Shown: one piece after another, positions 5,460 to 37,038 of the stretch
How positions within the stretch are numbered: position 1 is the stretch's first letter
Layout: every line of letters starts with the position of its first letter
From: Candidatus Dormibacteraceae bacterium
GTDB lineage: Bacteria > Chloroflexota > Dormibacteria > Dormibacterales > Dormibacteraceae
Direction: 5' to 3'
Length of the DNA: 64,000 bases
Assembly: GCA_050734495.1 (NCBI GenBank)
Contig: JBOHUQ010000126.1
Location: 7,646 to 71,645, forward strand
The notes under the pieces: generated by a model
Databases searched by the model: none
What the model saw: only the letters and a program-made list of their open reading frames with translations
What the model was told of the DNA's origin: nothing
Made by a program: the position numbers and the translations under genes

Positions 5460-7682
5460 TCAGTGTGGACTGGGCGACGGCGACGGAGCTGGCGACGGAG
5501 ACGCGGCCGGGGGGACATAAGGCGCCTGCCCCGGGTGCGGGTTGGCGCCGCACGGGTAAGCGGGCTCGCCGATTCCCTTGAGGAAGATCTCGCTCATACC
5601 ACCGCTGGTCACGTATCCGCCGTCGTACGTGCACACCTGGCGGGTTACGACTCCCGCCGGCTGTACCCACATCTCCGGCCATGGATGCGATTGGTAGTAC
5701 TCCTCGACAAACGGCTTCCACACCGAGATGCCGACGTTCTCGCCGAACAGCACCGAGGTCGGGCACTGCCAGCCCGAGGGCGGAAAGTTGGTCGCGAGAT
5801 ACGCAAAGCCCGAGTTGCATGTGGCCCCGGCGTCGATGTGCATGAGCGACGCGGCGATCGCGAGGTTCGGCGTGTAGCCGATGAAGATCGACCCGGTGTA
5901 GGCCTCCGTCGTGCCCGACTTGCCCGCCACCGGCTTGCCGCCCAGGGCGCCCAGGTACAGCTTCACGGGTCCGCGCAGCAGGTCCGTCATCACGTACCCG
6001 AGGTCGGGGCTGATGACCTGCGTGCGGCCGGCGGCCGGATCGAATGACTCGAGCACCTTGCCTGTCGCATCCGTCACCTTGAGCACGGCGTGCGGGCTGA
6101 TCCGGTATCCGCCGTTGTCGAACGCGGAGTAGGCCGCGAGATGCTCAGCCATCGAGATCGCATCCGGGCCCAGCGTGGTCGCGACGCCTGCCGGGCTCTG
6201 GATCGTGGCGGTGACGCCCAGGTTGTGCAGCAGGCTGACGACGCGATCCCCACCCTCCATGCCGTACGTCCACAGCGCGGGCAGGTTGCGCGACTGAGCG
6301 AGCGCGGTGCGCAGCGTTATCCACCCCTCGTGCTTGCCGTCCCAGTCGCTGAACGTGGTCCCCCCGATGACCCCCGACTGGTCGTTCAAAAGACTGGCCG
6401 GCGTCACCAGGCCGGCCTGCAGCGCGGCCGCGTACGTGTACACCTTGAAGGACGATCCGACGCCACGCCACCCCAACGGATCGACGCCGGTCAGATTGAT
6501 CTGGCCACGGATCGCAGCGTTGTTGTAGTCGGCGCTGCCGACCATCGCGAGGATCTCACCGTCCGCCGGATTCATCACCAGCATCGCGCCTGTGTTCACG
6601 CCGCGCTTCGCATATGTGGCAACGCCCGCCTTCACCCACTTGTCGGCCATCGCCTGCGTGCCCAGGTCGAGCGTCGTCGTGATGCGCAGCCCTCCCTCGT
6701 ACAGCGCCTGCGCTCCGTAGCGCTGGATGATGTACCGCTCGATGTAGTCGACGAAATGCGCTGTGAGCGGGTTGTGCGACCCGGGGAGGGCCTTGTGTGC
6801 CGCGATCATCTTCGCGACGAGGTCGCTGTTGAAGACCGCGTCGGCTGCGGACCGGCTCAGGTCGCCCATCGTGACCAGCCCGTCGAGGACGGAGCGCCAG
6901 CGCGATTTCGCAAACGCCAGCTGGTCCGGCGTTCCGAAAGGGTCGTAGTCCGCCGGCGCCTGCGGCACGCCGGCGAGAAAGCTCGCCTGAGCCCAGCTCA
7001 GATCGCTCGCGTGCACCTGGAAGTACGTCTCGGCCGCGGCCTCCGCCCCATACGCGCCGTTGCCGTAGTTGATCGTGTTCAAGTAGAGCTCGAGGATCTG
7101 CTGCTTGGAGTAGCGGCGCTCCATCTCCTCCGCCAGCAGCAGCTCGCGAAACTTGCGACTGACGGTCCGGCTCTGCGCCTCCGTGGAGTCCAGGACGATG
7201 TTTTTCACGACCTGCTCGGTGATCGTCGAGCCACCCAGCGTGGACGAGTGGTGCGTCAGGTCATACCCGATGGCGATGGCGAGGCGCCTGTAATCGACGC
7301 CCGAGTTCGAGTAGAAGGTGCGGTCCTCGGTCGCAATGGTCGCCTCCTGCAACTTGATGCTGATCTGCTTGAGCGGCACGACGGTGCGGTTCTGGTGATA
7401 CAGCGATTCGATCACGGCGCCGTTGCGGTCGAGAATGCGAGTCGTCTGGGTGAGGTTCGCGGCCTGGATCGCCTGGATCGAGGGCAGGTCGCCCGCGAAG
7501 TAGTCCACGACCCCGATCGTCCCCGCAGTCCCGATCAGGCCCATCGACGAGATCACGATCAGGCTCACCAGGGCAAGCCGCATCAGCCAGAAATGCGACC
7601 GGCGCTTGTGGGGGCGGCGCGGGCGGGGGCGCGCACGAATGCGTCGCTTGCGCGCGGCGGGCGCGCTCTTGCGGGAACGCAA
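5460..7682 (-). CDS. class A penicillin-binding protein (transglycosylase/transpeptidase)
   Basis: GT51 motifs EDRTFYSNSGVD and GGSTITEQ are present, with transpeptidase motifs SSFK, SRN and KSGT. There is an N-terminal TM anchor and a Pro/Ser-rich tail. The start codon is TTG. Confidence 0.93.
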   Translation of the reverse strand: MRSRKSAPAARKRRIRARPRPRRPHKRRSHFWLMRLALVSLIVISSMGLIGTAGTIGVVDYFAGDLPSIQAIQAANLTQTTRILDRNGAVIESLYHQNRTVVPLKQISIKLQEATIATEDRTFYSNSGVDYRRLAIAIGYDLTHHSSTLGGSTITEQVVKNIVLDSTEAQSRTVSRKFRELLLAEEMERRYSKQQILELYLNTINYGNGAYGAEAAAETYFQVHASDLSWAQASFLAGVPQAPADYDPFGTPDQLAFAKSRWRSVLDGLVTMGDLSRSAADAVFNSDLVAKMIAAHKALPGSHNPLTAHFVDYIERYIIQRYGAQALYEGGLRITTTLDLGTQAMADKWVKAGVATYAKRGVNTGAMLVMNPADGEILAMVGSADYNNAAIRGQINLTGVDPLGWRGVGSSFKVYTYAAALQAGLVTPASLLNDQSGVIGGTTFSDWDGKHEGWITLRTALAQSRNLPALWTYGMEGGDRVVSLLHNLGVTATIQSPAGVATTLGPDAISMAEHLAAYSAFDNGGYRISPHAVLKVTDATGKVLESFDPAAGRTQVISPDLGYVMTDLLRGPVKLYLGALGGKPVAGKSGTTEAYTGSIFIGYTPNLAIAASLMHIDAGATCNSGFAYLATNFPPSGWQCPTSVLFGENVGISVWKPFVEEYYQSHPWPEMWVQPAGVVTRQVCTYDGGYVTSGGMSEIFLKGIGEPAYPCGANPHPGQAPYVPPAASPSPAPSPSPSPH

Positions 7683-7741: not shown

Positions 7742-9151
7742 CTACCGCAGCCCCAGCGCCTCTGCTCCCTGGTCCGCCAGGCCCAGGAGCGGGCTCGAGA
7801 AGATGCCGTACACCGCGATTACGACGCAAAAGGCCACGGCCCCGAACGCTGACAACCCTGTCATCACCGGCAACCGGGTCGTGCGCCGCGCGTCGTCAGG
7901 CGGGCTCTGGATGTACATGACACGCATCGTCCCGACCACCGCCACGAGGCTGAGCGCGGTTCCAAGCACACCGAGCGCCAGCAGCGCGAAGTGGGCGCTC
8001 TGCGCCAGGGCCGCCGCAACGGCGAACTCGCCGAAGAATCCAGCCAGGGGCGGGGCCCCCGCCAGCGACAGCATCGCGAGGGAAAGCCCGGCCGCACGCG
8101 CGGGCCGCAGCACGCCCATTCCGGCCAGCGCCTGCTCCCCGCCTTCCGCCCGGCCCATGACCGCCGGCGCACAGGTCGCGGCCACCGCAAACGCGCCCAG
8201 CAGGAACAGGGATCCCGCCAGCCCGCCGCGATAGTGGGTCACGAGCCCGGCTGCGACCCAACCGATCTGCCCCGCCGCGAGGTAGGCCACGCGCACTCGC
8301 GCCGACTGCGCCGCCAGCGCCGCCGCCCCGCCCCCGACCATCGCGAACGCAGCGATCACCTCGAGGTACGTCGAGTACACCGCGGGGATCGGGGTGAGCG
8401 CGCCCACCACCTTGATCGCCACGGTAGCCGCGGCGGCCGCCACCAGGCCGAGCACCAACCCGGCTCCCAGCGGCGACGCGCCGAGGCTCGCCGGTATCGA
8501 CGCCACCTGGAACGGCGCCAGCGCCGCACGAACCGCCAGCCCGCTCATCACGAGAAACACTGGGATGGCCAGTGCGATGGTCGGTGTACCGCTGAAAAGG
8601 ACCGCGCGGATCGTGGCGAGGCTGGATGTACCGGCCGACGCATAGAGGAACGCGAGCCCGATCAGCAGCAGGGCGCTCGCCACGCCGCCAGTGACCAGCA
8701 GCCTGAGCGCGAGGTCGGGGCGCCGCACGGCGACCATGACCACACCCGCGGCGGCCGCCACTTCGAGCCCGGCCCACAGCGCGACCAGGTCTCCCGCGGA
8801 AGCCGCGACCATCACGCCGAAGGTCGCCAGCAGCGGCATGGCCAGCCCGATGGTCATCGAGTCCTCTGCCGTCCAGTCGACGACGGCCAACGCGATGGTC
8901 GCGGTCAGCAGGACGGCCGCCTTGGCGAACAGCGCGAATCGGTCCTGCAGGAACGCGCCCTCGAAGTACGTCGCGAGGGTGGCGCCGGCCCACAGCTCGA
9001 TGCCGAGCGCCACGAGCGTGACCAGCGCCACGGCCGCCGGCAGCGAGCGCCGGAAACCGCCCTGCGAAAGCCATCCGAGCCGGCCGGCCAGCAGCACGAG
9101 CACCGCGGCCGCGACCACCAGCGCCTCTGGGAGCAGGACCAGGTATTTCAC
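7742..9151 (-). CDS. nuoN: NuoN-like antiporter-type membrane subunit (divergent)
   Basis: Polytopic Ala/Leu-rich protein with recognisable NuoN blocks (WAGLEVA, RAALAPFQ, PPLAGFFGEF). The GTG at 9151 overlaps the nuoM-like stop (GTGA). Confidence 0.8.
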   Translation of the reverse strand: MKYLVLLPEALVVAAAVLVLLAGRLGWLSQGGFRRSLPAAVALVTLVALGIELWAGATLATYFEGAFLQDRFALFAKAAVLLTATIALAVVDWTAEDSMTIGLAMPLLATFGVMVAASAGDLVALWAGLEVAAAAGVVMVAVRRPDLALRLLVTGGVASALLLIGLAFLYASAGTSSLATIRAVLFSGTPTIALAIPVFLVMSGLAVRAALAPFQVASIPASLGASPLGAGLVLGLVAAAAATVAIKVVGALTPIPAVYSTYLEVIAAFAMVGGGAAALAAQSARVRVAYLAAGQIGWVAAGLVTHYRGGLAGSLFLLGAFAVAATCAPAVMGRAEGGEQALAGMGVLRPARAAGLSLAMLSLAGAPPLAGFFGEFAVAAALAQSAHFALLALGVLGTALSLVAVVGTMRVMYIQSPPDDARRTTRLPVMTGLSAFGAVAFCVVIAVYGIFSSPLLGLADQGAEALGLR

Positions 9152-10758
9152 CCGCCAGGTCCCGGAGTCGGAAGCACGTAGGGCGATGCGATGTCGCTGA
9201 GGCCGGCGGACAGGACGTTGACGAGACCCTGGTCGAACAGCGGCGAGTCGGTGCCGGGTAGCTTTGGACCGCTCGGGAAGAGCCCGACCCACAGGAGTCC
9301 ACCCGCCAGCAACGCCAGGTACCAGGTCTCACCCAGCGAAGCGTCCGACACCCCGGGCGCGTCCGGGTTCGGGGCGGAAAACAACACCCGCCGCCACAGG
9401 GAAGCCACCGCGATCGCCCCGAGCGCCAGGCCCGCGGCAACCGCAAAGGCCCCGATCGGCTGAGTCTTGAAGGAGCCGAAAAAGGTCAGGAGATTGGAGG
9501 TGAAGGTCGCGAGCAGAGGAACTCCGAGCACCGCCAGGCCCGCGATCACCATGAGCCACGTCAGGATCGGCATGCGCGGCGCCAGGCCGGCGAGCACGTG
9601 CAGGCTGCGCGACTGGGCGCGTTCCGCCAACGTCGCGCACACGCTGACGATGAGCGCCGCCGCAAGGCCGCCGGCGAACAGCGAGAGGACGGCCCCGGCG
9701 ATGGAGAGCGGCTGGAGGGCCGCCAGCGCGAGAACCGTCACCCCGCCCGGGATCAGGGCCAGGTAAGCGCTGGCCTGCCGGATGTCGTGGTGGCGCATCG
9801 CGACCAGCGCGCCGTACCCGACGGTCAGAGCTGCAAGCGCCGCGAGCCCCGGGGCCAGCAGGTGAGCGGCCGCGGGCTCGGCCGCGACCAGCGTCCGTAA
9901 TAGAAGGTATGCGCCCAGGCGCGACGCGCTGCCCGCAACGATCACCGTGACGCCGACCGGCGCCTCGGAGTAGACGTCGCGGGCCCATCCGTGCAGTGGA
10001 AAGAGTGGGAGCCTGGTCGCGGCGGCGACGATCATCAAGATCCCCGCGGCCAGCTGGACGCGCGGGCTGATGGCCGCCTTCAAGAGCACGTCCATGTCGA
10101 AGCTGCTCCCGCCCGCCGCGGAGTACAGCGCCATGGTTCCGATAATCAGCGCGCCCGTGCCCAGTCCCCAGTAACCGAGCAACCTCCACGCGGCCTCGTG
10201 GCGCCGGTGCCCGCCCCAGCCCAGGACGAGCAGGGCGAGCGGAACCGCTGCGGCGGACCAGAACAGGATCAGGACGAACATGTCTCGCGCGACGATGGCC
10301 CCGTTGACGGTCGCCTGTGCGAGAAGGAGCAGGCAGAAGTACGACCGCACGCGCTCGCGGATTCCGAGCGACGCGAGGACCGACACGATTCCGATCGCGC
10401 CGGACAGGATGAGCATCGTCATTCCAGGACCGTCCACCCCGAGGTGATAGACCGCACCGACCGCCTGGAGCCAGGGGACCTTCTCCTCGTACTGCACGGT
10501 CGGAAGGAACGACTGGAACTGGTTGTAGGCGACTCCCAGCACGAACATCAGGCCGAGGTTGGTGAAGAATGCGATCTGCTTCATCAACGTGTCGTAGCGG
10601 CCGCGCGGGTTCGGCATCGTGGCGATCGCGATGGCGACGACGACAGGCACCCAGATGGTGATGCTGAGCAGAAGCGAGGTGGAGAAGATGCCCGCGCCCG
10701 GCACGGTGGGCGCCGGGGTCGGGCTCGGGCTGGCCGCGAATATGGCTTGCCAGATCAT
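9148..10758 (-). CDS. nuoM: NuoM-like antiporter-type membrane subunit (divergent)
   Basis: Blocks ARDMFVLILFW, RLPLFPLHGW and EAPVG are present. The ATG at 10758 overlaps the nuoL-like stop (ATGA). Confidence 0.82.
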   Translation of the reverse strand: MIWQAIFAASPSPTPAPTVPGAGIFSTSLLLSITIWVPVVVAIAIATMPNPRGRYDTLMKQIAFFTNLGLMFVLGVAYNQFQSFLPTVQYEEKVPWLQAVGAVYHLGVDGPGMTMLILSGAIGIVSVLASLGIRERVRSYFCLLLLAQATVNGAIVARDMFVLILFWSAAAVPLALLVLGWGGHRRHEAAWRLLGYWGLGTGALIIGTMALYSAAGGSSFDMDVLLKAAISPRVQLAAGILMIVAAATRLPLFPLHGWARDVYSEAPVGVTVIVAGSASRLGAYLLLRTLVAAEPAAAHLLAPGLAALAALTVGYGALVAMRHHDIRQASAYLALIPGGVTVLALAALQPLSIAGAVLSLFAGGLAAALIVSVCATLAERAQSRSLHVLAGLAPRMPILTWLMVIAGLAVLGVPLLATFTSNLLTFFGSFKTQPIGAFAVAAGLALGAIAVASLWRRVLFSAPNPDAPGVSDASLGETWYLALLAGGLLWVGLFPSGPKLPGTDSPLFDQGLVNVLSAGLSDIASPYVLPTPGPGG

Positions 10759-12605
10759 CGGAAGACTCCAGGCGCGACGAGCCCGACCACCACCGTCAGG
10801 ACGACGGCGGCGAGGATCAGCAGCGGCAAAACCGGCAAACGTGCGCCGGAGACGGCCAGCCGTCCGGTCGTGTCAAGCGCCCTCCCGACGCCCCCGTCGC
10901 CGGCCGGGATCCAGCGCTCGCCGAGGCGCACCGCGATCTCGCTCACCGGCGCCACGATGAATCGTGCGAAGCTGCTCGAGGTCACACGGGTGAGACGCCT
11001 CAACCATATGCCGGCCCAGGCCGAAACGTGCAGCGCGCCGTCCTGGTCGCGTACATACGCGAGCACGGGCAGCGCGAAGCCGATCAGCACCACCACGACC
11101 CACAGCAGGTATGCCCCCGGGGTCGGAGCCGGATGCTTCTTGCCGTCGAGGAAGTCGAGCCAGCCATGGATCAGCGACGCGATCAGCAGGAGCGCGCCCG
11201 CGCCGCCGAGCCAGTAAGGCCACGCCAGGGAGGGCGACGGCGCTTCGCGCACGCGGTCCGGTACGAAGGTTCGCCGCCTTCGCAGCGGCCCGATCGACAC
11301 CCCCAGGAAGATCCGCGCCCCTCCGAGGGCGATCAGCAACACCGCCTCGCCCATCGCCAGCCCCAGGTTGGACCGCGAGCTCACGCCAAAGGCGAGGGCC
11401 CCCACGGTGCTCAGGCCCATGACGATCGCCGCGACCAGCACGGCCAGTGCGCTCGTCCGCATCCGCGTCCAGGCGTTACCCATCTCGACAAGATCGTCCG
11501 TACGCATCGCCGCGGCGATCGCCGACACAGCAAGCACGGCACCCGCACGCGCCGGCGCGACCGCCATCACGCATGCGATTCCCGCAATCGCAAAGGTCGC
11601 ACCCTGCACCTGGAAGCCGTGGATCACGACCGCGGCGCCGACCGCGGTCGCGCCCGAGCCGAGCAACGCGACGATGCGGCGCGGCTCGTTGCCGACCAAT
11701 GCGAGCAGCGGAGCGACGATCGCGGCCGCCCCGCACCCATAGAGCAGTCCCTTCACGGTCTGAGCGTTGGAGGCGACGACGATCGGCATCAGGCGGTACA
11801 GGACGACGATCGCGAGCACCGACCACACCGCCTGCGTCACAGCTGAGGCGGCGGGCGGAGCGGTCACCGCTGTTCGCGTGACCCAGGACTGGAGCGGCCA
11901 CAGCGCCAGGCGCCCAGCCACCGCGACGAAGAGAAGGATGGACGCAACCACCAGGGAACGCTCCGTCCAGCCCGGGTTGGTGTGAAGGATGGGTAGGAGC
12001 GTGGTCAAGTTGTTGACGCCGTATCGCGCGTACAGCCACGCCACTCCACACAGCAGCGAAAGATCGGTGACGAATGGAAGGGCGAGCGCGACCCGCGCGC
12101 GTAGCGCCGCCTCGTCCATCCCCCAGCGATGTGCGAGCAGCAGGTAGGTCGCGGCGCCGGTGACGCCCCAGAACGCGAGCAGCTCCGCCAGGTCCCAGCT
12201 GACCAGCACGCCTATGGCGCCGAAGAGGAGCACGCTCATCAGCGCGTTGAATCGCGCGGCGCCCGGCTCCGAGCGGCCCATCACCTGGTGCCAGCCGAGC
12301 ACTCCGATCACGCAGAGCTCGACCACGATCAGCGCCACGATGCCGACGTGGTCGACCCGCAGCACGATGTCGATGCCGAATCCCTGGAAATTGGCCGGCC
12401 CCGTGACGGCCACCGGCAGATTGATGTACGAGTAGGTCGCGAGGAACGGCGTTGTCCTCTTTGCGAGGCCCCACCCCACCAGCAAGCTCGCGAGCAGGGT
12501 GACCACCGCGCCGAACATGGCGAGGTTCGCCGAGGACCGGCGGGTGCGCACGCTCGACAGAGCGATGAGGAATGCCGCGAACGGAGCCATGACGATCAGC
12601 GGCAC
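10755..12605 (-). CDS. nuoL: NuoL-like antiporter-type membrane subunit (divergent); start uncertain
   Basis: Blocks FWGVTGAATYLL and GRLALWPLQSW are present, with a long C-terminal extension that includes a lateral-helix-like segment. Candidate starts are GTG 12605, ATG 12590, or CTG 12720 overlapping the nuoK-like stop. Confidence 0.75.
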   Translation of the reverse strand: MPLIVMAPFAAFLIALSSVRTRRSSANLAMFGAVVTLLASLLVGWGLAKRTTPFLATYSYINLPVAVTGPANFQGFGIDIVLRVDHVGIVALIVVELCVIGVLGWHQVMGRSEPGAARFNALMSVLLFGAIGVLVSWDLAELLAFWGVTGAATYLLLAHRWGMDEAALRARVALALPFVTDLSLLCGVAWLYARYGVNNLTTLLPILHTNPGWTERSLVVASILLFVAVAGRLALWPLQSWVTRTAVTAPPAASAVTQAVWSVLAIVVLYRLMPIVVASNAQTVKGLLYGCGAAAIVAPLLALVGNEPRRIVALLGSGATAVGAAVVIHGFQVQGATFAIAGIACVMAVAPARAGAVLAVSAIAAAMRTDDLVEMGNAWTRMRTSALAVLVAAIVMGLSTVGALAFGVSSRSNLGLAMGEAVLLIALGGARIFLGVSIGPLRRRRTFVPDRVREAPSPSLAWPYWLGGAGALLLIASLIHGWLDFLDGKKHPAPTPGAYLLWVVVVLIGFALPVLAYVRDQDGALHVSAWAGIWLRRLTRVTSSSFARFIVAPVSEIAVRLGERWIPAGDGGVGRALDTTGRLAVSGARLPVLPLLILAAVVLTVVVGLVAPGVFR

Positions 12606-12715: not shown

Positions 12716-12991
12716 TCAGCGCGACGTCCCCCGGCCCGCGATCCCCACGCCGAGCGCGACCAGTGCAAGCGCCGCGACTGCGAGCAGCGCCGCGACCTCC
12801 TGGCCGAAGATCTTCGGGTCGCCCGCCGCAGAGAATCGTGCCGCGCCGGCGAAAGCCACACCCGCCCCTCCGAACATCAAGGGCAGGCCGGCGAGCGCTG
12901 AAGAGAGGTCTTTTTTCCAGGTCGCGACGAACGCGCCCACCGCGACCAGGGCGACCGCGACGAAGAGGACGGACACGAGGCTGGCGCTCAC
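12716..12991 (-). CDS. nuoK: NuoK-like 3-TM subunit (divergent)
   Basis: 91 aa with three TM helices and the NuoK layout (basic loop after TM1, GQ before TM3). The ATG overlaps the nuoJ-like stop (ATGA 12988-12991). Confidence 0.7.
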   Translation of the reverse strand: MSASLVSVLFVAVALVAVGAFVATWKKDLSSALAGLPLMFGGAGVAFAGAARFSAAGDPKIFGQEVAALLAVAALALVALGVGIAGRGTSR

Positions 12992-13476
12992 CGGCCGCGA
13001 TCCCGCACTCGCCAGGCTGCGGTCGCACCGACGAGCGCGATGAGAATCAGCACGCCTACGGCCTCCGTCGCCAGCGCGTCGTGCACAAAGAGAACCCGAC
13101 CGACCGCGGCCGCACCGATCTCACCACCTCGGTACGTCGCCTCGACGAAGTCGCCTCGGAAGGCGGCGTAGGACAGCACCGCAAACAGGCCCGCGGCCGC
13201 GACAGCCCCGACCTGGCGCCACGCGAAACCGACCGGCGAGTCCACGATCCGGTATCGCGGCCCGGCGATGAGCAGGGCGCAACCCGCATAACAGACGAGC
13301 ACCGCGAGACCCGCGAAGTCCGTGGACAGGGAGGCGTAGAGCCCCGCGATCCCGAGGCCGGAAACCCCCACCGCCACCCCGCGCGCGCCGCGCCCGGGCA
13401 CGAACGCCACCAGCAGCCCGCCCCCGATCGAGATCGCGGCGGACACGTAAAAGCCAATCGCGTGGAGGGAGTCCAT
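12988..13476 (-). CDS. nuoJ: NuoJ-like membrane subunit
   Basis: 162 aa starting at ATG 13476 with GGAG upstream. The motifs CYAGCALL (canonical VYAGA) and C-terminal ...ATEAVGVLILIALVGA (canonical PFE..S.LLL.A.IGA) are present. Confidence 0.78.
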   Translation of the reverse strand: MDSLHAIGFYVSAAISIGGGLLVAFVPGRGARGVAVGVSGLGIAGLYASLSTDFAGLAVLVCYAGCALLIAGPRYRIVDSPVGFAWRQVGAVAAAGLFAVLSYAAFRGDFVEATYRGGEIGAAAVGRVLFVHDALATEAVGVLILIALVGATAAWRVRDRGR

Positions 13477-13511: not shown

Positions 13512-13733
13512 CTAGTCGACGATGCCGCCGGCTCCAAGGCGCCAAGCATACAGGAGCCCGGAACCCGCGATCCCCACGAGTGCGACCACCGCGACGATGG
13601 CGCCAGGAGTGGCTTGCGAGACGGTCAGGCTGACCCCGTAGGCCGCCACCAGGGCCACCACCGCGAGCCCCAGGAACGCCGCCGCGACCCGCAGCGGGTC
13701 CCAGCGGGCGAGCGCGCGCGACAATGCAGCCAT
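13512..13733 (-). CDS. small 2-TM membrane protein with NuoA-like C-terminus
   Basis: 73 aa. It ends GLLYAWRLGAGGIVD, resembling the NuoA TM3 end motif Y-x-W-[RK]-x-G-x-L-x-W. It sits directly upstream of the nuoJ-like gene. A longer GTG start at 13814 is possible. Confidence 0.5.
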   Translation of the reverse strand: MAALSRALARWDPLRVAAAFLGLAVVALVAAYGVSLTVSQATPGAIVAVVALVGIAGSGLLYAWRLGAGGIVD

Positions 13734-27886: not shown

Positions 27887-28485
27887 ACCATCCGGACCAG
27901 GCCGCGTCCGAAGACTGCGATCAGCTCCGCGGTGCGATCGATGTCGTCGTCACGCACAGGCAGGAAGTAGACCCAGGCCGCGCGCTCGGTCTCGGTCGTG
28001 ATCATGGTTCGCGCCGAATCGGCGCTCGGATTGCCGCAAGGTCCCTCGGCGTCGGCGACGCAGATGCGGCCCACCACGTTGACGCGCTCCTTTCCGATGC
28101 CCGTGTATCCCTCGCCCTCGACACCTAACCGGATCACGAGCTCGTCGCCTTTCACCTTGTCCAGGTCGTACAGGCCGACCGGCACCTGCAGCTGAACCGA
28201 GAGGGCGTTCGCGACATCGACGAGGGAGTTTATGCGCGGCATCGGCTCGCCTTTTTTGAGCCGGCGGAGGAGCGCCTCGGATGACGGCCGCACCCGTGTC
28301 GGGTCGAGCCCGAAATGTCGGTACAGCTCGCGGGCGCGACCCACAGCGCCCACCTCGCCAGACTTCGCCACTAGGATGGTGCGCGCCACCTCGAGCTCGA
28401 AGTCATCGCGCGGCGTCGTCACCTCCAGCTCGTAGAGCTCGAGCACATCGGGTTCGACGTCGATCTCGCTGCGCACCGTCAGCAC
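27883..28485 (-). CDS. B3/B4 tRNA-binding domain protein (PheRS-beta editing-domain-like)
   Basis: About 200 aa: SSEALLRRLKKGEPMPRINSLVDVANALSVQLQVPVGLYDLD...GNPSADSARTMI. The GTG at 28485 overlaps the aroA stop; GTG 28476 is an alternative. Confidence 0.65.
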   Translation of the reverse strand: MLTVRSEIDVEPDVLELYELEVTTPRDDFELEVARTILVAKSGEVGAVGRARELYRHFGLDPTRVRPSSEALLRRLKKGEPMPRINSLVDVANALSVQLQVPVGLYDLDKVKGDELVIRLGVEGEGYTGIGKERVNVVGRICVADAEGPCGNPSADSARTMITTETERAAWVYFLPVRDDDIDRTAELIAVFGRGLVRMV

Positions 28486-29735
28486 AGGTATTCGAGATGG
28501 TCGAAGAAATCCGGATACGAGATCTCCACGCATTCGGCACCGTCGATCTCCGTCTTGCCGTCCGCGATCAAACCGGCCACCGCGAGCGCCATCGCCACGC
28601 GATGGTCGCCACGCGAGCTCACCCTCGCGCCTTCGAGGTAGCGGGGACCGTTGATCACCCAACCATCCTCGACCGCGGTCACGTCCGCGCCCATGGCGAC
28701 GAGGCCCTTCTCCATCGCGTCGATCCGATTCGACTCCTTGACGCGCAGCTCCGCGGCGCCCGAGATCACGGTCCGGCCGGGCATCTGCGTCGCAGCCACG
28801 GCGAGCACAGGCAGCTCGTCGATCATCTCGGCGGCCATGTCCCCGTTGACCCTGAGCGATCGCAAGCCTGCCGCCGACGTGACCTCGAGATCCGCGACCG
28901 GCTCGCCACCCGCAAAGCGTGGCCTGAAGAACTTGACCTGGAAGCCGCTGCCGAGCAGCAGGTCGATGAAGGCGGTCCTGGTCGGATTCACGCCCACGCC
29001 TTCCAGCACCACCCGCGAACCCGGCACCAGCCCGGCCGCCACGAGCCAGAAGGCGGCGGCGCTGATGTCGCCGGGGATGTCTATGTCCAGTGGCTCGAGA
29101 CGAGTGGCGGGCTCCACCTGCACACAAAGCCCGTCGACAGCGATCGCCGCGCCCATCGCCCGCAGCATCAGCTCGGTGTGGTCCCTTGTCTTGACCGGTT
29201 CGACGACCGCGGTCGGCCCGTCGGCAAACAGGGCGGCGATGAGGATGGCCGACTTCACCTGCGCGCTCGGCTTTGCCATTTTGTGATCGAAGCCATGCAG
29301 CGGCGCCTGGCCTCCGACTCGCAGGGGCGGCCAGCTCGCGCGCGCGCCCATCTCGCGCAGAGGCGCGACGACCCGGTCCATCGGCCGGCGCGACAGTGAC
29401 TCGTCGCCGGCCAGCTCGCTGTCGAAATCCTGTGCAGCCAGCAAACCCGCGAGCAGCCGCATCGTCGTTCCGGAGTTGCCGCAGTCGAGCGGTCCTCTCG
29501 CCCTGCGGAGCCCATGCAGTCCCTGTCCGTCCAGCGTCCCGCCGTCGAGCTCAGCCCCCAGCTCCTGCATGCAGCGACGGGTCGACCGCACGTCCGCGCC
29601 GGGCGACAGACCACCCAACCGACTGCGGCCTGAGGCGATCGATCCGAGGATCATCGCGCGATGCGAGATCGACTTGTCACCCGGAACGCGAATCGCGCCA
29701 TCCAGCTTCCGGGCGCGCCGCACCGTCGCGATCAC
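28479..29735 (-). CDS. aroA: 3-phosphoshikimate 1-carboxyvinyltransferase (EPSP synthase)
   Basis: VPGDKSISHRAMILG, LDCGNSGTTMRLL and length 418 aa. Confidence 0.95.
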   Translation of the reverse strand: MIATVRRARKLDGAIRVPGDKSISHRAMILGSIASGRSRLGGLSPGADVRSTRRCMQELGAELDGGTLDGQGLHGLRRARGPLDCGNSGTTMRLLAGLLAAQDFDSELAGDESLSRRPMDRVVAPLREMGARASWPPLRVGGQAPLHGFDHKMAKPSAQVKSAILIAALFADGPTAVVEPVKTRDHTELMLRAMGAAIAVDGLCVQVEPATRLEPLDIDIPGDISAAAFWLVAAGLVPGSRVVLEGVGVNPTRTAFIDLLLGSGFQVKFFRPRFAGGEPVADLEVTSAAGLRSLRVNGDMAAEMIDELPVLAVAATQMPGRTVISGAAELRVKESNRIDAMEKGLVAMGADVTAVEDGWVINGPRYLEGARVSSRGDHRVAMALAVAGLIADGKTEIDGAECVEISYPDFFDHLEYLC

Positions 29736-30547
29736 CGGCGTGACCAGCGTTCGCGGACGGCGTGGGCCTCTTCGAAGAGCTCCACGAGCCGCGCGTCGTC
29801 AGCTTCCAGGTGGCGGCGCAGGCGCGCCAGCTCGGCGGCGATTGCGTCCAGCTGCTCCACCAGGTGTGCGCGATTGGTCCGCGCCACCCCTGCGTACAGC
29901 TGCGGGTCGCCCGCCGCCAGTCGGCTAACGTCGCGAAAACCACCCGCCGCCAGCTTCGACGCCTCGGGCCAATCGGACCGCCGCGACAGCGCCAGCACAT
30001 AACCGACTGAGAGGAGGAACGCCGCGTGGCTGACGCCGGCGACCAGCCTGTCATGCGTCTCGGCATCCATCACGATCGGATGTGCGCCCACCGCCTCGAT
30101 TAGGTCGATGAGCATGGGTTCGCCGCGGGTCAGGACCCACGGCGCATCTTTGAACACAGACGCATCCGCCGCATCGATGCCCGAGCTCTCCTTACCGCAC
30201 ATGGGGTGGCCGCCAATGAGATCGACCCCGGCAGCCGCCGCCCACTCCATCACGTCGACCTTCGTGCTCGCCATGTCGGTCACGACCCTTCCATCGGTGC
30301 GGCCCGCGAGCCGCGCAAAGACATCCCGCATAGAGTCGATGGGCGCGCCGATGACGATGACCTCGGCCATACCGGCCACGCTGGTGTCAGCGCTCGCGCT
30401 CGCGACGACGCCGCGGTCCAGCGCCTTGCGCAACGTCAGGGAATCCGGGTCGCTGCCGACGATCACCAGGTCGGGACGCGCCTCTTTCAGAGCGAGGGCG
30501 AACGACGCGCCCATGAGCCCCAGCCCGACCACCGCCACTGTGGTCAC
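29732..30547 (-). CDS. tyrA: prephenate dehydrogenase
   Basis: VAVVGLGLMGASFALAL Rossmann fold and GGHPMCG are present. I prefer the GTG at 30547 (GGGAGA upstream) over the longer GTG 30622. Confidence 0.85.
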   Translation of the reverse strand: MTTVAVVGLGLMGASFALALKEARPDLVIVGSDPDSLTLRKALDRGVVASASADTSVAGMAEVIVIGAPIDSMRDVFARLAGRTDGRVVTDMASTKVDVMEWAAAAGVDLIGGHPMCGKESSGIDAADASVFKDAPWVLTRGEPMLIDLIEAVGAHPIVMDAETHDRLVAGVSHAAFLLSVGYVLALSRRSDWPEASKLAAGGFRDVSRLAAGDPQLYAGVARTNRAHLVEQLDAIAAELARLRRHLEADDARLVELFEEAHAVRERWSRR

Positions 30548-30658
30548 CTGGCAAGTCTCCCATCCCCCACAGGGGCAATCAGCAAGTCCATCCTCATCGC
30601 CGCTTGCGCGCGAGGGTGGCACGAAGCGCCGGGTGGCGGGTGACCCGAGCCCTGCAAG

Positions 30659-31675
30659 CTAGGCCAGTTGCTTCGCCATCGAATCGAGCAGGCGCCGCAG
30701 GTCGGTCATCAGCAGGTCGAAGTTCTCGAAGTCGAGCGACTGGGCGCCGTCCGACAGCGCCTGGTTGGGCGCTGGATGAACCTCCACGATCAGCCCGTGT
30801 GCGCCGGCCGCCACAGCCGCCAGGGACATCGGCCGCACGAGCGACCACCGGCCGGTCGCCTGTGAGGGGTCGACGATGATCGGAAGGTGCGACAGCTCTC
30901 GCGCGAGCGGAATCGCGTTGAGGTCCAGCGTGAACCGCGTCGCCGTCTCGAAAGTCCGGATGCCGCGCTCACACAGGATCACGTCGCGGTTGCCCTGCGA
31001 CAGCACGTACTCGGCGGCGAGCAGCCACTCTTCGATGGTCGAGGCCATGCCCCGCTTGAGCAGCACCGGTTTGCCCGATCTCCCGGCCTCCTGCAGCAGC
31101 GCGTAGTTCTGCATGTTGCGAGTCCCGAGCTGAAGGACGTCCGCATAACGAGCGACGAGCTCCACGTCACCCGGGGCCACGACCTCCGTCACGACTTTGA
31201 GCCCCGTCTCGTCGCGCGCCGTTGCCATCATCTTCAGCGCCGCCTCACCGAGACCCTGAAACGAGTACGGCGAGGTGCGCGGCTTGAAGGCGCCGCCCCT
31301 CAGCACCTTGGCGCCCTGCTTGGCGACATGGCGCGCCGTGTCGAGAAGCATCTCTTCGCCTTCGACCGAGCATGGACCGGCCATCATCACGACCTCGTCG
31401 CCGCCGATCTTCACCCCGCCGACGTCGACCACGGTGTTGGCCCTGCGGAACTCGCGACTCGCCAGCTTGAAGGGCTTGGTGATCGGGATGATCTCGTGAA
31501 TTCCGCCGAGGTGGGAGAAGGCCTCCTTGTACGCGTACGCGTTTCCTCCAATCACCCCGATCAGCGTTCGCTCTTCGCCCTTGGACAGCTCCGTCTTGAG
31601 CCCGATCTCGTGGACGCGGTCGACCACCGCATCGACCTCTGCCTTGGTGGCGCCGTGAGTCATCACGATGATCAC
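30659..31675 (-). CDS. 3-deoxy-7-phosphoheptulonate (DAHP) synthase, type I-beta with N-terminal ferredoxin-like regulatory domain
   Basis: MAGPCSVE, LRGGAFKPRTSPYSFQG and IVDPSQ are present. The GTG at 31675 overlaps the aroH stop (GTGA). Confidence 0.9.
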   Translation of the reverse strand: MIIVMTHGATKAEVDAVVDRVHEIGLKTELSKGEERTLIGVIGGNAYAYKEAFSHLGGIHEIIPITKPFKLASREFRRANTVVDVGGVKIGGDEVVMMAGPCSVEGEEMLLDTARHVAKQGAKVLRGGAFKPRTSPYSFQGLGEAALKMMATARDETGLKVVTEVVAPGDVELVARYADVLQLGTRNMQNYALLQEAGRSGKPVLLKRGMASTIEEWLLAAEYVLSQGNRDVILCERGIRTFETATRFTLDLNAIPLARELSHLPIIVDPSQATGRWSLVRPMSLAAVAAGAHGLIVEVHPAPNQALSDGAQSLDFENFDLLMTDLRRLLDSMAKQLA

Positions 31676-32067
31676 GGGATCAACGTCCCCCGGAGATGGT
31701 CGAGGTCGGCCTTGATCGCCTGCGCGCCGCGCAGGTAGGCGAAACGCATCGCCGACTGGGGCCGTGGCGTGTTGTAGAGGATCAGCACCCGCACGCATTT
31801 CGGCGCTCCACGTGGGTTCGGCAGCTGCACGTCCATGTCACGGCCGCACAAAAGGGGCACGTCGAGCCATCCCAGCCTGCGCGCGGCGACGGCGGGAAAC
31901 TCGGCAGTGAGGTCGTGCGTGGTCGTGAAGTACGTGAAGCAGATCTCGGCGGTGTCGAGGTCGTTGAGGCGCACCAGCTCGCGGAGGAGCTCGTCGGTCG
32001 CTTCGGTAATGGATTCCGCCGTGTTCGAATCGGCGGTCGTCGCGCCTCTGATCCCTCTTACCGGCAA
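31672..32067 (-). CDS. aroH: chorismate mutase, AroH class
   Basis: N-terminus [11 protein letters not shown], as in B. subtilis AroH. 131 aa. Confidence 0.88.
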   Translation of the reverse strand: MPVRGIRGATTADSNTAESITEATDELLRELVRLNDLDTAEICFTYFTTTHDLTAEFPAVAARRLGWLDVPLLCGRDMDVQLPNPRGAPKCVRVLILYNTPRPQSAMRFAYLRGAQAIKADLDHLRGTLIP

Positions 32068-32831
32068 CCCTTCAACAGCTCCTTCACCAGTGCGGCCGCG
32101 TCTCCACCTCGGTCGATCTCGTTGACGATCGCGCTTCCCACCACCGCCGCGTCAGCGATGCCGCGCAGCGCTTTCATGTGCTCGGGCCGCGAGATCCCGA
32201 AGCCCGCGGCAACCGGCAGCTTCGTATGCCGTCGAACCTGCGCGAACAGGTCCTTCATTCCAGGAGGCAGCTCCTTCCTCGCGCCGGTGATACCGGTGAC
32301 CGTCACGCAGTACACGAACCCGCTCGATCGCTCGCAGATTGCCGGTAGCCGGTCCTCTGCGGTCGTGGGAGCCACCATGAAGATTGTGTCGAGCGATGCC
32401 GCCCGCAGCCAGCCTGCCACCGGCTCTGACTCCTCGACCGGCAGGTCGGGGACGATCACGCCGGCCACGCCGGCCTGGGCGGCCTCGGCGGCAAATCGCC
32501 TCGGATCGTGGGCCAGCACCGGGTTGATGTAGGTCATGAGGACCACGGGCACGCCTTCAGGTGCGATCGCCGCCGCGACCTCGAGCGCGCCCGCCACGTT
32601 CATCCCGTGCTCGAGCGCGACCTGTCCCGCATGCTGGACCACCGGGCCGTCGGCCAGCGGGTCGGAGAAAGGGACGCCGATCTCGAGGGCTGCGATGCCG
32701 GAGGCCGCGAGCCTCTTCCCCACCTCGATCGACTTCTTCTTGGTGGGGTGCCCGGCCATCATGTAGGCGACGAGCTTCAGGTCGCCGGTGGCGCGCACGG
32801 CCTGCTCCAACGACACCGTTTCAGTCTTCAT
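32058..32831 (-). CDS. trpA: tryptophan synthase alpha chain
   Basis: [17 protein letters not shown] is present. 257 aa. Confidence 0.95.
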
Positions 32832-34039
32832 CGATCGCGCTGCGCGCGGGCGGCATCTTCGACCGAGTCCATATCCTTGTCGCCACGTCCGGAAAGGCAG
32901 ACCAGGATCCGCCCGCCCGGCCCCATCTCGCGCGCCATCACGCCGGCGTGATGCAGCGCGTGGGCAGGCTCGAGCGCCGGCATGATGCCCTCGAGGCGAG
33001 TGCAGAGCTTGAACGCCGCAAGCGCGTCGTTGTCCGTCACGGCGACGTACTCGGCCCGCTCGATGTCTCGCAGGAACGAATGCTCAGGTCCCACCCCCGG
33101 GTAGTCGAGACCAGCCGAGATCGAGTGCGTGGGCAGCACCTGCCCATCGCCGTCCTGCAGCAGGTACGAATAGCTTCCATGAAGGACGCCCGGACGCCCG
33201 CCCACCAGCGAGGCGGCGTGCTGCCCACTCTTCACGCCGCTGCCCGCGGCCTCGACTCCGATGAGGGTCACGTCTTTGTCCTCGAGGAAGGCGGTGAAAA
33301 TACCGATCGCGTTGGACCCTCCGCCGACACATGCGATCACCACGTCGGGCAGCTTGCCGTCCACCGACAGGTACTGGTCGCGAGCCTCGTCGCCGATCAC
33401 GCGCTGGAGGTCCCGCACCATCTCGGGATAGGGATGAGGGCCGACCACCGAGCCGATGATGTAGTGGGTCGTGCGCACATTGGTCACCCAATCACGGATC
33501 GCTTCGGACGTCGCGTCTTTCAGGGTCTTCGTCCCGCTCGTCACCTCGACGACGTCCGCGCCAAGGAGCTTCATCCGGCGCACGTTCATCGACTGGCGGC
33601 GCATGTCCTCGGTCCCCATGTAGACGGTGCATTCGAGACCAAATCTCGCGGCCACGGTGGCGGCGGCCACCCCATGCTGGCCGGCGCCGGTCTCGGCGAT
33701 CACGCGCTTTTTGCCCATGCGGAGTGCCAGCAACGCCTGGCCGACGGCGTTGTTCAACTTGTGCGCGCCGGTGTGGCACAGGTCCTCCCGCTTGAGGTGG
33801 ATGTGTGCGCCGCCGAAATGCTCGCCCAACCTGGTCGCGGCATAGAGTGGAGTCGGCCGGCCGACGAATGCGTGGCGGTGGCCCGCGAGCTCCAGCTGGA
33901 ACTGCGTGTCCGCCTTCGCCTCATGCCACATGTCCTCGAGCTCGCGCAATGCGCTCATCAGCGTCTCGGGCACGTACTGGCCGCCGTAGGCTCCGAAGCG
34001 CCCGTCGACCGGGTGCGTCGGGGCGCTGCGCGCCATCAC
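32828..34039 (-). CDS. trpB: tryptophan synthase beta chain
   Basis: HTGAHKLNN (PLP Lys) and GGGSNAIG are present. 403 aa. Confidence 0.97.
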
Positions 34040-34644
34040 ATCAATGCCTCGGCCAGGCGGACGGCGTGCACGAAGGCGCGGACCTTGTCGGGATCCTTGA
34101 CGCGCACCGACGACTCGACGCCGCTGGAAACATCGACGCCATATGGCTTGAAGGCGCTCACAACCTTGCCCACGTTACCCGGTTCAAGACCACCGGCGAT
34201 GAACACCTTCCGTGCTGCGAGCAGTGGGCGCGCGAGCTCCCAGTCCCAAACCTGTCCGGTGCCGCCGCGCTGGTCGGCCGACCAGGAGTCGAGCATCACC
34301 GGGTCCGGCCATCCCTCCGCGTCGGGGACGGCGCCGTCCTTGACCTTGAGCACTTTCATCACCGGACGGCCCGCCTCAAAGCCGGGCAATTCCGAACCGT
34401 GCAGCTGCAGCAGGTCCAAGCGCGCGAACTCGGCGATCTGCCTGACCTCATCCGCGTCCTGGTCGATGAAGACTCCGACGACGGTCGGGCGCAGCGCGAG
34501 GGTATCGACGATTGCCCTGGCCTCTTCCGGCGTCACGCGCCGTTGGGACGAGCAGAAATGGAAGCCGATGAGGTCGGCGCCGGCTTCGACGGCCGCAGCC
34601 GCTCCGGCGGCGTCGCAGATGCCGCAGATCTTCACCTGGACCAT
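34036..34644 (-). CDS. trpF: phosphoribosylanthranilate isomerase
   Basis: [17 protein letters not shown] and length 202 aa. Confidence 0.92.
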
Positions 34645-35495
34645 GCGGTCAACTCCCTGATCCGCAGCTCGGGCTTCTCGGCGCGCATCAGCGCCTCACC
34701 CACCAGGATCGCGTTCGCGCCCGCCTCGTAGACGCGGCGGGCGTCATGGGCGTCCTTGATTCCGCTCTCCGCGACCACGACGACAGAGGGCGGGATCAGC
34801 CTGCGCAGCCGTTCGGTCAGGCCGAGGTCGATTTCGAAGGTGCGCAGGTCGCGGTGGTTGACGCCGATGAGCGCCGCGCCGGCCTCCAGGGCAACGTGGG
34901 TCTCGCGCTCGTCGTGCACCTCGACCAGCGCTGCCAGCCCGCGGCTCCTGGCTGCTGCGAGCAGTTCTCGAAGCCCCGTACGCCCTCCGGCGCTTCGCGC
35001 CACCTCCCCGGCGAGCGGGGACGGCGGCCTGTCGAGGGCGGCGACGATGAGGAGAACGGCATCGGCCCCGGCCGCCCTGGCCTCGGCGATCTCGTACGGG
35101 TCGGTCACGAAGTCTTTGCGAAGGATCGGCAGGTGCGTCGCGGCTCGGGCCGCCAGGACGTGCTCCGGGCGCCCGCCAAAACCCGCCATGTGTGTGAGCA
35201 CAGAGATCGCCGCCGCACCGCCGTGTGTGTATGCGTGGGCGAGGTCCGCCGGCCGGTAATCCTCCACGAGGACTCCCATGGTCGGCGTGCGCTGCTTCAT
35301 CTCGGCGATCACGGCGAGACCGGGGCCCCGCAGCGCACCCACGAAGTCCTTTGGCGCGTACGCGGCCACGGCCCGCTCGAACTGGTCCTGCGCGATCAGC
35401 GCTCTGCGACGCTGGAGGTCCTGCCGCGCCTCGACCACCAGGCGGGACAAGAGGTCTTTGTGTTCCTGGGTCACTCCTGGGAGATTTTCGCCCAC
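34632..35495 (-). CDS. trpC: indole-3-glycerol phosphate synthase
   Basis: IAEMKQRTPTMG, LRKDF, EVHDE and GVNHRDL are present. An alternative GTG at 35474 overlaps the trpD stop. The protein contains an extra loop, PPSPLAGEVARSAGGRTG. Confidence 0.9.
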   Translation of the reverse strand: MGENLPGVTQEHKDLLSRLVVEARQDLQRRRALIAQDQFERAVAAYAPKDFVGALRGPGLAVIAEMKQRTPTMGVLVEDYRPADLAHAYTHGGAAAISVLTHMAGFGGRPEHVLAARAATHLPILRKDFVTDPYEIAEARAAGADAVLLIVAALDRPPSPLAGEVARSAGGRTGLRELLAAARSRGLAALVEVHDERETHVALEAGAALIGVNHRDLRTFEIDLGLTERLRRLIPPSVVVVAESGIKDAHDARRVYEAGANAILVGEALMRAEKPELRIRELTAWSR

Positions 35496-36468
35496 CGCTG
35501 GAGGACCTCGCCCGCGCGCCCGGAGTCGATGGCCTCCGCGGCGACGCCCAGGCCATCCTTCCAGCTGTCCGCCAGGCCCGCCGCGCGGAGCGCCGCCGCC
35601 GCGTTCAAGAGGACCGCGTCGCGCCGCGGGCCCTTCGCGCCCTGGAGCACCTCGCGGGCGATGCGCGCATTCTCGTCAGGACCGCCTCCGCGCATCGACT
35701 CGACCGGCGCCCGCGCAAGGCCCAGCTCGACCGGGTCCAGCTCATATTCCTTGCGCTCGCCATCGATCTCAATCACGTGGGATGGCGAACTGACGGAGAG
35801 CTCGTCCATACCGTCGCCTGCGTGGAAGACGATCGCGCGCTCCACCCCGAGGCGCATCAACACCTCGGCCAGCTTGCCCGCCATTGCGCCGTCGGCCACG
35901 CCCAGCGCCTGGTACTTCGCGCCTGCCGGATTGCACAGGGGCCCGAGCACATTGAAGACGGTGCGCATCCCCAGCTCGCGTCTCGGCACGCCGGCGAACC
36001 GAAAGGACGGATGGAAAACCGGCGCGAAAAGGAAGCCGATGCCCGCCTCGCCCACGCACCGCGCGACACCTTCGGGACCGAGGTCGATCTTGACGCCCAG
36101 CTGCTCGAGCACGTCCGCCGAACCACACATCGAAGAAGCGGCCCGGTTGCCGTGCTTGGCGACCTTTGCGCCGGAGGCGGCCGCCACGACGGCGGAAAGG
36201 GTCGAGATGTTGAATGTCGCGAGCCCATCGCCCCCGGTTCCACACGTGTCGAGCAGCGCGCCGTCGATCTGGATCGGCGTCGCCACGGCGCGAGCGGCTC
36301 GCGCGAAGCCGGTGATCTCGTCGACCGACTCGCCCTTCATCCGCAGAGCGACGAGAAACCCGGCGATCTGAACCGGAGTCGCGTCGCCCCTCATGATCTC
36401 CTTGAAGGCCGTAGCGGCTTCGTCCTCGGTGAGCGACTCGCACCTGACGAGCTTTGCCATCGCTTCGA

Positions 36469-36472
<4 letters not shown>
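35471..36472 (-). CDS. trpD: anthranilate phosphoribosyltransferase
   Basis: DTCGTGGDGLATFNIST and KHGNRAASS are present. Confidence 0.95.

Positions 36473-37038
<566 letters not shown>

Follow-up and report, generated by a model that had tools for sequence, protein, structure and literature searches.

Why should a bacterium keep a set of complex I-type membrane subunits after the residues of their proton relay have been replaced? The question is raised by the 64,000-nucleotide stretch of DNA analysed here (the window; contig JBOHUQ010000126.1 of a Candidatus Dormibacteraceae bacterium), in which six tightly packed minus-strand open reading frames (ORFs), extending from 13733 to 7742, encode a 73-amino-acid (aa) protein followed by NuoJ-, NuoK-, NuoL-, NuoM- and NuoN-like proteins. 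An earlier interpretation made from the DNA letters without database searches (the sequence-only reading) had described the last three ORFs as a maintained module that is unable to use the canonical Lys/Glu proton chain. We find that the replacements are conserved and that the ratio of nonsynonymous to synonymous substitution rates (dN/dS) is 0.06-0.18 for the NuoK- to NuoN-like genes, which upholds that description; the extent given was right for L, M and N, but the feature is larger and also takes in the NuoK-like, NuoJ-like and 73-aa ORFs. As far as synteny and phylogeny indicate, the cluster is what remains of a longer nuo operon that has lost its quinone module. The genes of the cluster are the following.

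13512..13733, minus strand: conserved 73-aa ORF with two predicted transmembrane (TM) helices, the first gene of the cluster
12988..13476, minus strand: NuoJ-like, 162 aa; PF00499 30.4 bits, below the 33.2 cut-off
12716..12991, minus strand: NuoK-like, 91 aa; PF00420 20 bits, below the 26.1 cut-off
10755..12605, minus strand: NuoL-like, 616 aa; PF00361 67.5 bits; best PDB match NdhF 6hum_F, E 3e-9
9148..10758, minus strand: NuoM-like, 536 aa; PF00361 129.2 bits; E. coli NuoM 3rko_M, E 1.7e-44
7742..9151, minus strand: NuoN-like, 469 aa; PF00361 78.5 bits; NdhB 6hum_B, E 1e-30

Replacement of the relay residues

The alignment register was taken from phmmer alignments to solved structures and from MAFFT alignments with the E. 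coli K-12 subunits and ~44 orthologues. The phmmer, MAFFT and structure-based evidence agree, and the register that had been drawn by eye in the sequence-only reading was reproduced both by phmmer to structures and by MAFFT with E. coli NuoL, NuoM and NuoN. The canonical relay, which consists of the TM5 Glu, the TM7 Lys, the TM8 Lys/His and the TM12 Lys/Glu, is not present in the cluster, and ~44 species are alike in this respect. The states of the individual positions in the window are given below.

NuoL-like: E144G; D178 kept; K229R; H254Q; H334C; H338V; K342R; K399R; D400S; the relay is G-D-R-Q-R-R-S at E144-D178-K229-H254-K342-K399-D400
NuoM-like: E144S; K234R; K265R; H322P; H348G; E407N; the relay is S-R-R-P-G-N at E144-K234-K265-H322-H348-E407
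NuoN-like: E133 kept; K217R; H224Q; K247V; K395E; the relay is E-R-V-E at E133-K217-K247-K395
NuoK-like: E36P; E72L; both membrane glutamates are gone

The sequence-only reading had already given the TM5 Glu as Ser in the NuoM-like ORF, as missing from the NuoL-like ORF and as retained in the NuoN-like ORF, and the TM7 Lys as Arg in all three, and the alignments agree with it (E144S in M, E144G in L, E133 in N; K229R in L, K234R in M, K217R in N). Its TM7 His-to-Gln change is correct for the NuoN-like ORF (H224Q) but in the NuoL-like ORF is not a departure from E. coli, whose NuoL also has Gln there (Q236). The TM8 calls correspond to K265R in M and H254Q in L, both of which hold, and K247V in N is an additional replacement that had not been listed. 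At TM12 the Lys-to-Glu change in N (K395E) stands, and the loss of Glu from M (E407N) is real for the window but is a minority state, as 37 of 46 relatives keep Glu at this position and Asn is limited to the window species and a few others.

The replacements are shared across the clade to which the window belongs (clade A; clades were assigned from synteny and identity). The N-like pattern E,R,V,E and the L-like pattern G,D,R,Q,R,R,S are found in nearly all of 44 species, and the M-like pattern is (G/A/S),R,R,(E/N/D). Arg occupies L-like positions 229 and 342 in 44/44 sequences and M-like positions 234 and 265 in 45/46; Gln at L-like 254 and Pro at K-like 36 are each present in 44/44, Glu at N-like 395 in 41/43, and K-like position 72 is Leu, Ala or Val. 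The Arg, Glu and Asp residues of the central axis are invariant. M-like position 407 and L-like position 144 gave no clear covariation signal.

Conservation and purifying selection

Homology searches assign the organism to Candidatus Dormibacterota. Relatives were collected by a scan in which each GTDB species was represented by a single genome; it returned 47 loci, and the same J-K-L-M-N order followed by the gene for the class A PBP, PBP1A, was found in 44 of them. The cluster is intact in ~45 Dormibacterota species, with almost invariant ORF lengths. When the window was compared with nine close relatives by the Nei-Gojobori method, dN/dS was 0.06-0.12 for K, 0.08-0.16 for M, 0.09-0.16 for N and 0.13-0.18 for L, rising to 0.14-0.27 for the NuoJ-like gene and 0.27-0.60 for the 73-aa ORF. 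Frameshifted or neutrally evolving orthologues, which the sequence-only reading had named as the sign of decaying pseudogenes, are not the rule among these relatives. Because the ORFs are intact in so many species, dN/dS is low for the K- to N-like genes and the replacements themselves are conserved, the window cluster is not decaying.

Mean identity to the window within clade A is 66-75% for the cluster proteins and 81-87% for neighbouring housekeeping genes; for the NuoM-like protein and MnmA the values are 75% and 82%, respectively. Between clades, NuoM-like proteins are 33-39% identical and MnmA proteins 50-68%. An exact look-up found no identical copy of the window NuoM-like protein on record.

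Two of the loci have interrupted matches, in one species each: an M-like match in two pieces with ~50 residues missing (L049:3945-5392) and an L-like match with an internal gap (L037:6491-8234). Assembly error or local decay is possible in both. Seven SMAG TPA_asm records of metagenome-assembled genomes (MAGs), L004, L022, L024, L027, L029, L034 and L038, carry the Dormibacterota locus at 69-93% identity, and their labels (Candidatus Acidoferrum, Nitrosotalea, Nitrosopolaris, Gemmatimonadales, Eisenbacteria, Baltobacterales or Limnocylindria) look unreliable.

A complete operon at the same site

An exhaustive HMMER search of 1.84 billion representatives for NuoM relatives returned close families that are mostly fully canonical and a separate set of degenerate families; full-length representatives of the nearest NuoM families mostly have E/K/K/H/K/H/H/E at the relay positions, and against this background the pattern of the window is far from chance. 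The top canonical match, P0138, is located in locus L140, where the order is PALP-ThiS-NIL-MnmA-small ORF-NuoA-B-C-D-H-I-J-K-L-M-N, followed by a lipid A acyltransferase-like gene and plsY. Another canonical NuoM, P0341, which carries a 'Limnocylindria' label, was considered as a Dormibacterota NuoM and rejected, its family being Eisenbacteria. The L140 arrangement also occurs in L143 to L145, including the 213-kb contig of MAG GCA_005880985.1. The coordinates of the complete operon, which encodes 11 subunits and is without nuoEFG, on two Dormibacterota-related contigs are as follows.

L140:2394-13144: complete nuoABCDHIJKLMN
L145:9625-20575: complete nuoABCDHIJKLMN

The relay residues of A, H, J, K, L, M and N in L140 and L145 are canonical despite 70% GC, the lone apparent exception being E157 of the L145 NuoH, which may be an alignment effect. 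The 90% identity cluster of the L140 NuoB includes a protein labelled Candidatus Dormibacteraeota, and the L140 MnmA is 45-51% identical to its counterparts in clades A to D, which is about as distant as A, B and C are from each other (50-52% identity). Between mnmA and nuoA, L143 to L145 have a 424-428-aa Pyr_redox_2 gene that is possibly NDH-2-like.

In a neighbour-joining tree built from NuoM only with 200 bootstraps, L140 and all 18 degenerate sequences were grouped in 199/200 bootstraps. The mnmA side of the locus is also shared: the window has PALP, NIL and MnmA, L054 has ThiS-NIL-MnmA, and L052 and L138 have PALP-ThiS-NIL-MnmA. L141 and L142 have MnmA and the same small ORF upstream and the lipid A acyltransferase/plsY/dnaX-ybaB-recR genes downstream, and the thiS-to-recR region is syntenic across the phylum. 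Since the cluster lies at the same syntenic site as the complete operon and L140 is its closest canonical relative in the NuoM tree, the window cluster is, on this comparative evidence, the remnant of nuoABCDHIJKLMN after deletion of nuoABCDHI. The sequence-only reading had offered a non-pumping paralogue as one possibility, but the cluster is probably not a paralogue beside a canonical operon, given that it occupies the orthologous site of the full operon of L140 and L145. GC3-based gene calling and tblastn with E. coli NuoA-I detected no other nuo genes in the 64-kb window, and no homologues of NuoA, B, CD, E, F, G, H or I were detected in 1.47 Mb of flanks of ~140 loci, bar one unrelated Planctomycetales contig.

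Graded states in the sister lineages

Clade B, which comprises L054 and 80 soil metagenome loci (L058-L137), is likewise without nuoABCDHI, yet it is less derived than clade A. Its relay positions are as follows.

Clade B L-like: E144G; K229, H254, K342, K399 and D400 all kept
Clade B M-like: E144Q, H348D, E407Q
Clade B N-like: K217R, K247V
Clade B NuoK: E36Q

The slot that nuoABCDHI occupies in relatives is filled in clade B by two other genes, which lie between mnmA and the NuoJ-like gene (L054:6049-7144) and encode a 100-aa protein with three TM helices and a 260-aa Fpr-type ferredoxin-NADP reductase (FNR). The FNR is present in 28/28 loci that reach far enough upstream and, with 79-90% identity, is the best-conserved gene of the operon. 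No FNR homologue was found in the window or in the clade A flanks.

Other lineages are reduced differently. L141 and L142 keep J-K-L-M-N, yet with other relay replacements, and L052 (8169-13002) and L138 (5656-10489) have L-M-N only, between mnmA and PBP1A, with mixed replacements. L138 has a patatin-like gene beside mnmA, and its N-like protein is so diverged that its Pfam match on record is none. The relay is thus canonical in both of the lineages examined that have the quinone module (Q-module; L140 and L145), and it is replaced in every examined lineage without it.

The predominance of Arg among the clade A replacements is, judging from composition, partly due to a Lys-poor, Arg-rich proteome: the 26 flanking genes of the window have 2.6% Lys and 7.7% Arg, which pushes any site that tolerates either residue towards Arg. 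Lys is scarce in the proteomes of all these lineages. GC bias alone was considered as the cause of the Lys-to-Arg changes and rejected, because L140 and L145, at 70% GC, and the Lys-poor clade B keep relay Lys; in clade B the few lysines of a Lys-poor protein are placed at the relay sites. Since clade B is equally Lys-poor and keeps its relay Lys, the Arg residues of clade A reflect a changed constraint beyond composition. It appears that in clade A a positive charge is still required at the former Lys sites and a titratable one is not.

Family membership and fold

The L-, M- and N-like ORFs pass the PF00361 cut-off of 21.5 bits, though weakly (bit scores as listed above). The NuoM-like ORF scores 279.6 bits with TIGR01972 against a cut-off of 263.8, and this is the sole curated NCBIfam cut-off reached in the cluster: the NuoL-like ORF scores 63.8 bits against 407.5 (TIGR01974), the NuoN-like ORF 134 against 332.6 (TIGR01770) and the NuoJ-like ORF 37 against 154 with the NCBIfam NuoJ model. 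No NCBIfam equivalog model was passed by the L-, M- or N-like ORF. The two smaller subunits are recognised by profile comparison with hhalign, in which the NuoJ-like family matches the Dormibacterota NuoJ of L145 with 90.3% probability (E 1.5e-6, 150 columns) and the NuoK-like family matches the NuoK of L140 with 92.7% and that of clade B with 95.9% probability. The NuoJ-like ORF retains Y59.

The 73-aa ORF has no Pfam or NCBIfam match. It is found at the same position in 35 clade A loci by tblastn and is a called gene in L001 and L002. Its identification as NuoA was considered and dropped, hhalign giving 31.6% over 20 columns with L145 and 1.3% with L140. By NCBIfam and hhalign, a recognisable NuoA with the D79/E81 carboxylates is absent from the cluster.

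The sequence-only reading held that the TM pattern is kept, and this agrees with the AF2 model of the NuoM-like ORF and with the hydropathy of the NuoL-like ORF. The former (pLDDT 86.7) has helix breaks at residues 249-257 and 411-417, in TM7 and TM12, and superimposes on NdhD (6khi_D) with TM-scores of 0.87/0.93 and a root-mean-square deviation of 1.7 Å; across NdhD, NuoM and ND4 the TM-score is 0.87-0.95. The model indicates that the NuoM-like protein is an intact antiporter-type 14-TM fold with discontinuous TM7 and TM12. A single-sequence AF2 model of the NuoL-like ORF was discarded (pLDDT 43.9). Hydropathy places TM helices of the NuoL-like ORF at 500-518 and 592-610 with ~70 polar residues between them, and those of E. 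coli NuoL at 495-513 and 594-612, so that TM15, the lateral stretch and the C-terminal TM16 appear from hydropathy to follow the E. coli NuoL layout. Among solved structures, NdhD and NdhB are nearest to the M- and N-like ORFs.

Organization of the cluster and its surroundings

The intact ORFs and start/stop overlaps pointed out in the sequence-only reading are preserved, with conserved lengths in the ~45 species. The overlaps are of four bases, ATGA at L/M and GTGA at M/N and J/K: the NuoN-like start is the GTG at 9151, which overlaps the NuoM-like stop codon, and the GTGA start of the NuoK-like gene overlaps the NuoJ-like stop codon. The next gene downstream starts ~60 bp past the NuoN-like stop on the same strand.

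5460-7682, minus strand: class A PBP (PBP1A; transglycosylase and transpeptidase), downstream of the NuoN-like gene

No terminator-like site was found between the NuoN-like gene and the PBP gene, and a promoter and terminator scan gave nothing exceeding shuffled expectation. In clades A, B, C and D, PBP1A comes after the N-like gene in the same orientation, which is not the case in L141 and L142; in relatives it is followed by a CDP-alcohol phosphatidyltransferase gene and then by dnaX-ybaB-recR. Upstream of the cluster the window has two ABC exporters, CBS, CopD and mnmA, and also PALP and NIL.

Discussion

The explanation that we consider probable, although far from secure, is that the cluster encodes an orphaned complex I membrane arm, a non-pumping assembly that serves as a scaffold or docking platform. 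The substitutions and how well they are conserved, the purifying selection, the synteny and the origin in the NuoM tree are all observed, and the evolutionary side of this explanation is far better secured than its functional side. In the ancestor of this soil Dormibacterota lineage, the stretch from mnmA to the plsY/dnaX-ybaB-recR block would have held nuoABCDHIJKLMN, from which the genes for the quinone module and the membrane socket (nuoA, B, C, D, H and I) would then have been deleted. With the redox driver lost, selection on the titratable relay residues would have lapsed and the residues would have been replaced: in clade A, Arg took the place of relay Lys, Gly, Ala or Ser that of the TM5 Glu in L and M, and Gln, Pro or Gly that of relay His, and both NuoK Glu residues were lost. 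J, K, L, M and N would still assemble as in complex I, and the assembly would be unable to hop protons along Lys/Glu/His. The invariant buried Arg residues are probably paired with E131 and E376 of the N-like protein, E407 of the M-like protein (in most species) and D181 of the L-like protein, and these fixed ion pairs could stabilise the arm as static salt bridges; the pair that is switchable at each subunit boundary of the canonical enzyme would here be permanent. The buried Arg would accordingly be kept as fixed charges with a role that is probably structural, and the cluster must, to judge from its residues, be kept for something else than classical proton pumping.

Several points weigh against this explanation. 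The degenerate NuoM clade is monophyletic to the exclusion of L140 in only 126/200 bootstraps, and the absence of nuoABCDHI covers the window and the flanks of ~140 loci; a Q-module or a second complete nuo operon may lie elsewhere in the genome. The salt bridges and the scaffold are what we infer. Work on E. coli suggests that single Lys-to-Arg changes in NuoM keep partial activity, and Arg alone is no proof of inactivity. A purely structural role is also an unusual reason to retain ~2,000 residues of membrane protein. Finally, the Dormibacteria MAG DOR_08 (order UBA8260) has nuoA and nuoB by KEGG annotation in the supplement of PMC9326234; these may be of the L140 type.

The nuoA and nuoB reported in DOR_08 (PMC9326234 supplement) would also fit a split operon, in which the cluster, as the sole nuoJKLMN set of the genome, docks onto NuoH and a Q-module encoded elsewhere and takes part in complex I-like quinone reduction, perhaps with little or no proton pumping or by a non-canonical pumping route. 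A split of this kind would be in keeping with NdhD and NdhB as the nearest solved structures to the M- and N-like proteins, and with the clade B FNR, which inside the operon would suit a ferredoxin-fed NDH-1. The ndh/nuo genes of cyanobacteria are indeed scattered. Nevertheless we think a split operon quite unlikely, because the full operon of relatives is at this very site and the missing part is exactly nuoABCDHI, and because relay loss tracks the loss of Q-module genes in the examined lineages, which a simple relocation of the partners would not lead one to expect. Both NuoK glutamates have been lost, as has a recognisable NuoA, L052 and L138 keep L-M-N only, and no other nuo gene is present in the flanks examined. 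Decaying pseudogenes or a misaligned by-eye register would account for the very low family scores of L, N, J and K and for the two interrupted matches, but we give such an explanation almost no credence: dN/dS of the K- to N-like genes and conserved ORF lengths contradict decay, the translational coupling overlaps are kept, and the profile (HMM), MAFFT and structure-based registers agree.

In favour of neofunctionalization, the M-like protein diverged fast between clades and then, within clade A, at a pace near that of MnmA, as would be expected if function had changed. The arm could have become a transporter of an anion or a phosphate-bearing lipid along its Arg-lined axis, or it could anchor a new partner, for instance the clade B FNR or the downstream PBP1A/CDP-alcohol phosphatidyltransferase. 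The invariant central-axis Arg, Glu and Asp would be consistent with this, as would the FNR and the 100-aa TM protein in the nuoABCDHI slot of clade B and the equally oriented PBP1A gene next to the N-like gene in clades A to D. However, no FNR homologue accompanies the cluster in the window or the clade A flanks, and synteny from thiS to recR is phylum-wide, so that adjacency to PBP1A, which is missing from L141 and L142, need not mean co-function. Neither a substrate-binding motif nor a partner domain could be recognised, and the clades chose different replacements, a picture that resembles relaxed chemistry rather than a new active site common to them all. A transporter or partner role of this type is unlikely in our estimation. 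For the orphaned arm itself, the most far-reaching formulation would be a naturally occurring 'pseudo-pump', a phylum-wide arm without a redox module in which relay Lys has become non-titratable Arg under selection for a new function; this is possible but doubtful. In clade B the arm may couple to the operon-embedded FNR that replaces nuoABCDHI.

Comparison with known systems supports descent from the P-module of the 11-subunit, NuoEFG-less complex I/NDH-1 of L140 and L145, with which the cluster shares the J-K-L-M-N order and chromosomal site, the M-like fold (TM-score ~0.9) and, as far as hydropathy suggests, the NuoL lateral-helix layout. It differs from that complex in having no NuoA, B, C, D, H or I, in the replacement of nearly all of the relay, in the loss of the NuoK glutamates and in L, N, J and K scores far below the curated family cut-offs. 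Mrp (Mnh/Pha) antiporters likewise have redox-independent PF00361 subunits and a NuoK-like subunit, but they use the same Lys/Glu relay as complex I. They also possess MrpB, E, F and G and the MrpA C-terminal domain, none of which is in the cluster or flanks; the cluster ORFs score best on Nuo/Ndh models, with Mrp models well below. The Pfam assignments on record for neighbours in the loci listed include no DAB/CUP partner, neither DabA (DUF2309) nor CupA. Ehr-type hydrogenase-related complexes, which Marreiros et al. treated in 2013, have reportedly lost catalytic metal ligands and would be another example of a complex I superfamily member kept after loss of its chemistry-defining residues; there, however, the loss is said to be in the catalytic Q-module-like subunit while the pump residues stay, the reverse of the situation in the cluster.

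The closest precedents are the nuo2 genes of Streptomyces (SCO4599-4608) and the orphan NuoLMN of the Chloroflexi MAGs RBG-1351 and CHL_03 (PMC9239103, PMC3971608, PMC9326234), which are also membrane subunits without full partners and whose function is described as unclear in the relevant passages. Orphan or partial nuo sets are thus already mentioned in passing (PMC3971608, PMC9326234, PMC9239103); those passages contain no analysis of relay, selection or origin, whereas the cluster described here has systematic replacement and an identified ancestral operon. The literature found on Dormibacterota respiration offers only generic statements and the single supplement with the DOR_08 nuoA and nuoB. 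A limited literature search found no earlier account that joins a phylum-wide selected arm, Lys/Glu rewiring as deduced here from sequence and the ancestral operon.

The Dormibacterota loci amount to a natural deletion experiment: among the lineages sampled, those that still encode the Q-module have a canonical chain and those that do not have a replaced one. The coupling of the antiporter-like Lys/Glu/His chain to quinone chemistry is still debated, and because the state of the chain tracks the Q-module in these lineages, the loci support the idea that the relay residues serve redox-driven proton transfer. The fixation of Arg together with purifying selection suggests that the structural role of the buried positive charges is separable from proton transfer, and the persistence of the arm under purifying selection suggests that L-M-N as an assembly does something in its own right. 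If the 'pseudo-pump' proposal is true, the antiporter-like L-M-N assembly would have a role that does not depend on proton translocation. A practical consequence concerns annotation: the cluster genes are automatically annotated as 'proton-translocating NADH-quinone oxidoreductase chain L/M/N', and Dormibacterota metabolic reconstructions that count them as complex I may overstate respiratory capacity.

Other genes in the window

An apparent aromatic amino-acid/tryptophan biosynthesis block, judged by N-terminal sequences only, occupies 28479-38538 of the minus strand and includes the following ORFs.

within 28479-38538, minus strand: EPSP-synthase-like ORF
32828-34039, minus strand: TrpB-like ORF
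34036-34644, minus strand: TrpF-like ORF
36469-37038, minus strand: TrpG-like ORF
37039-38538, minus strand: TrpE-like ORF

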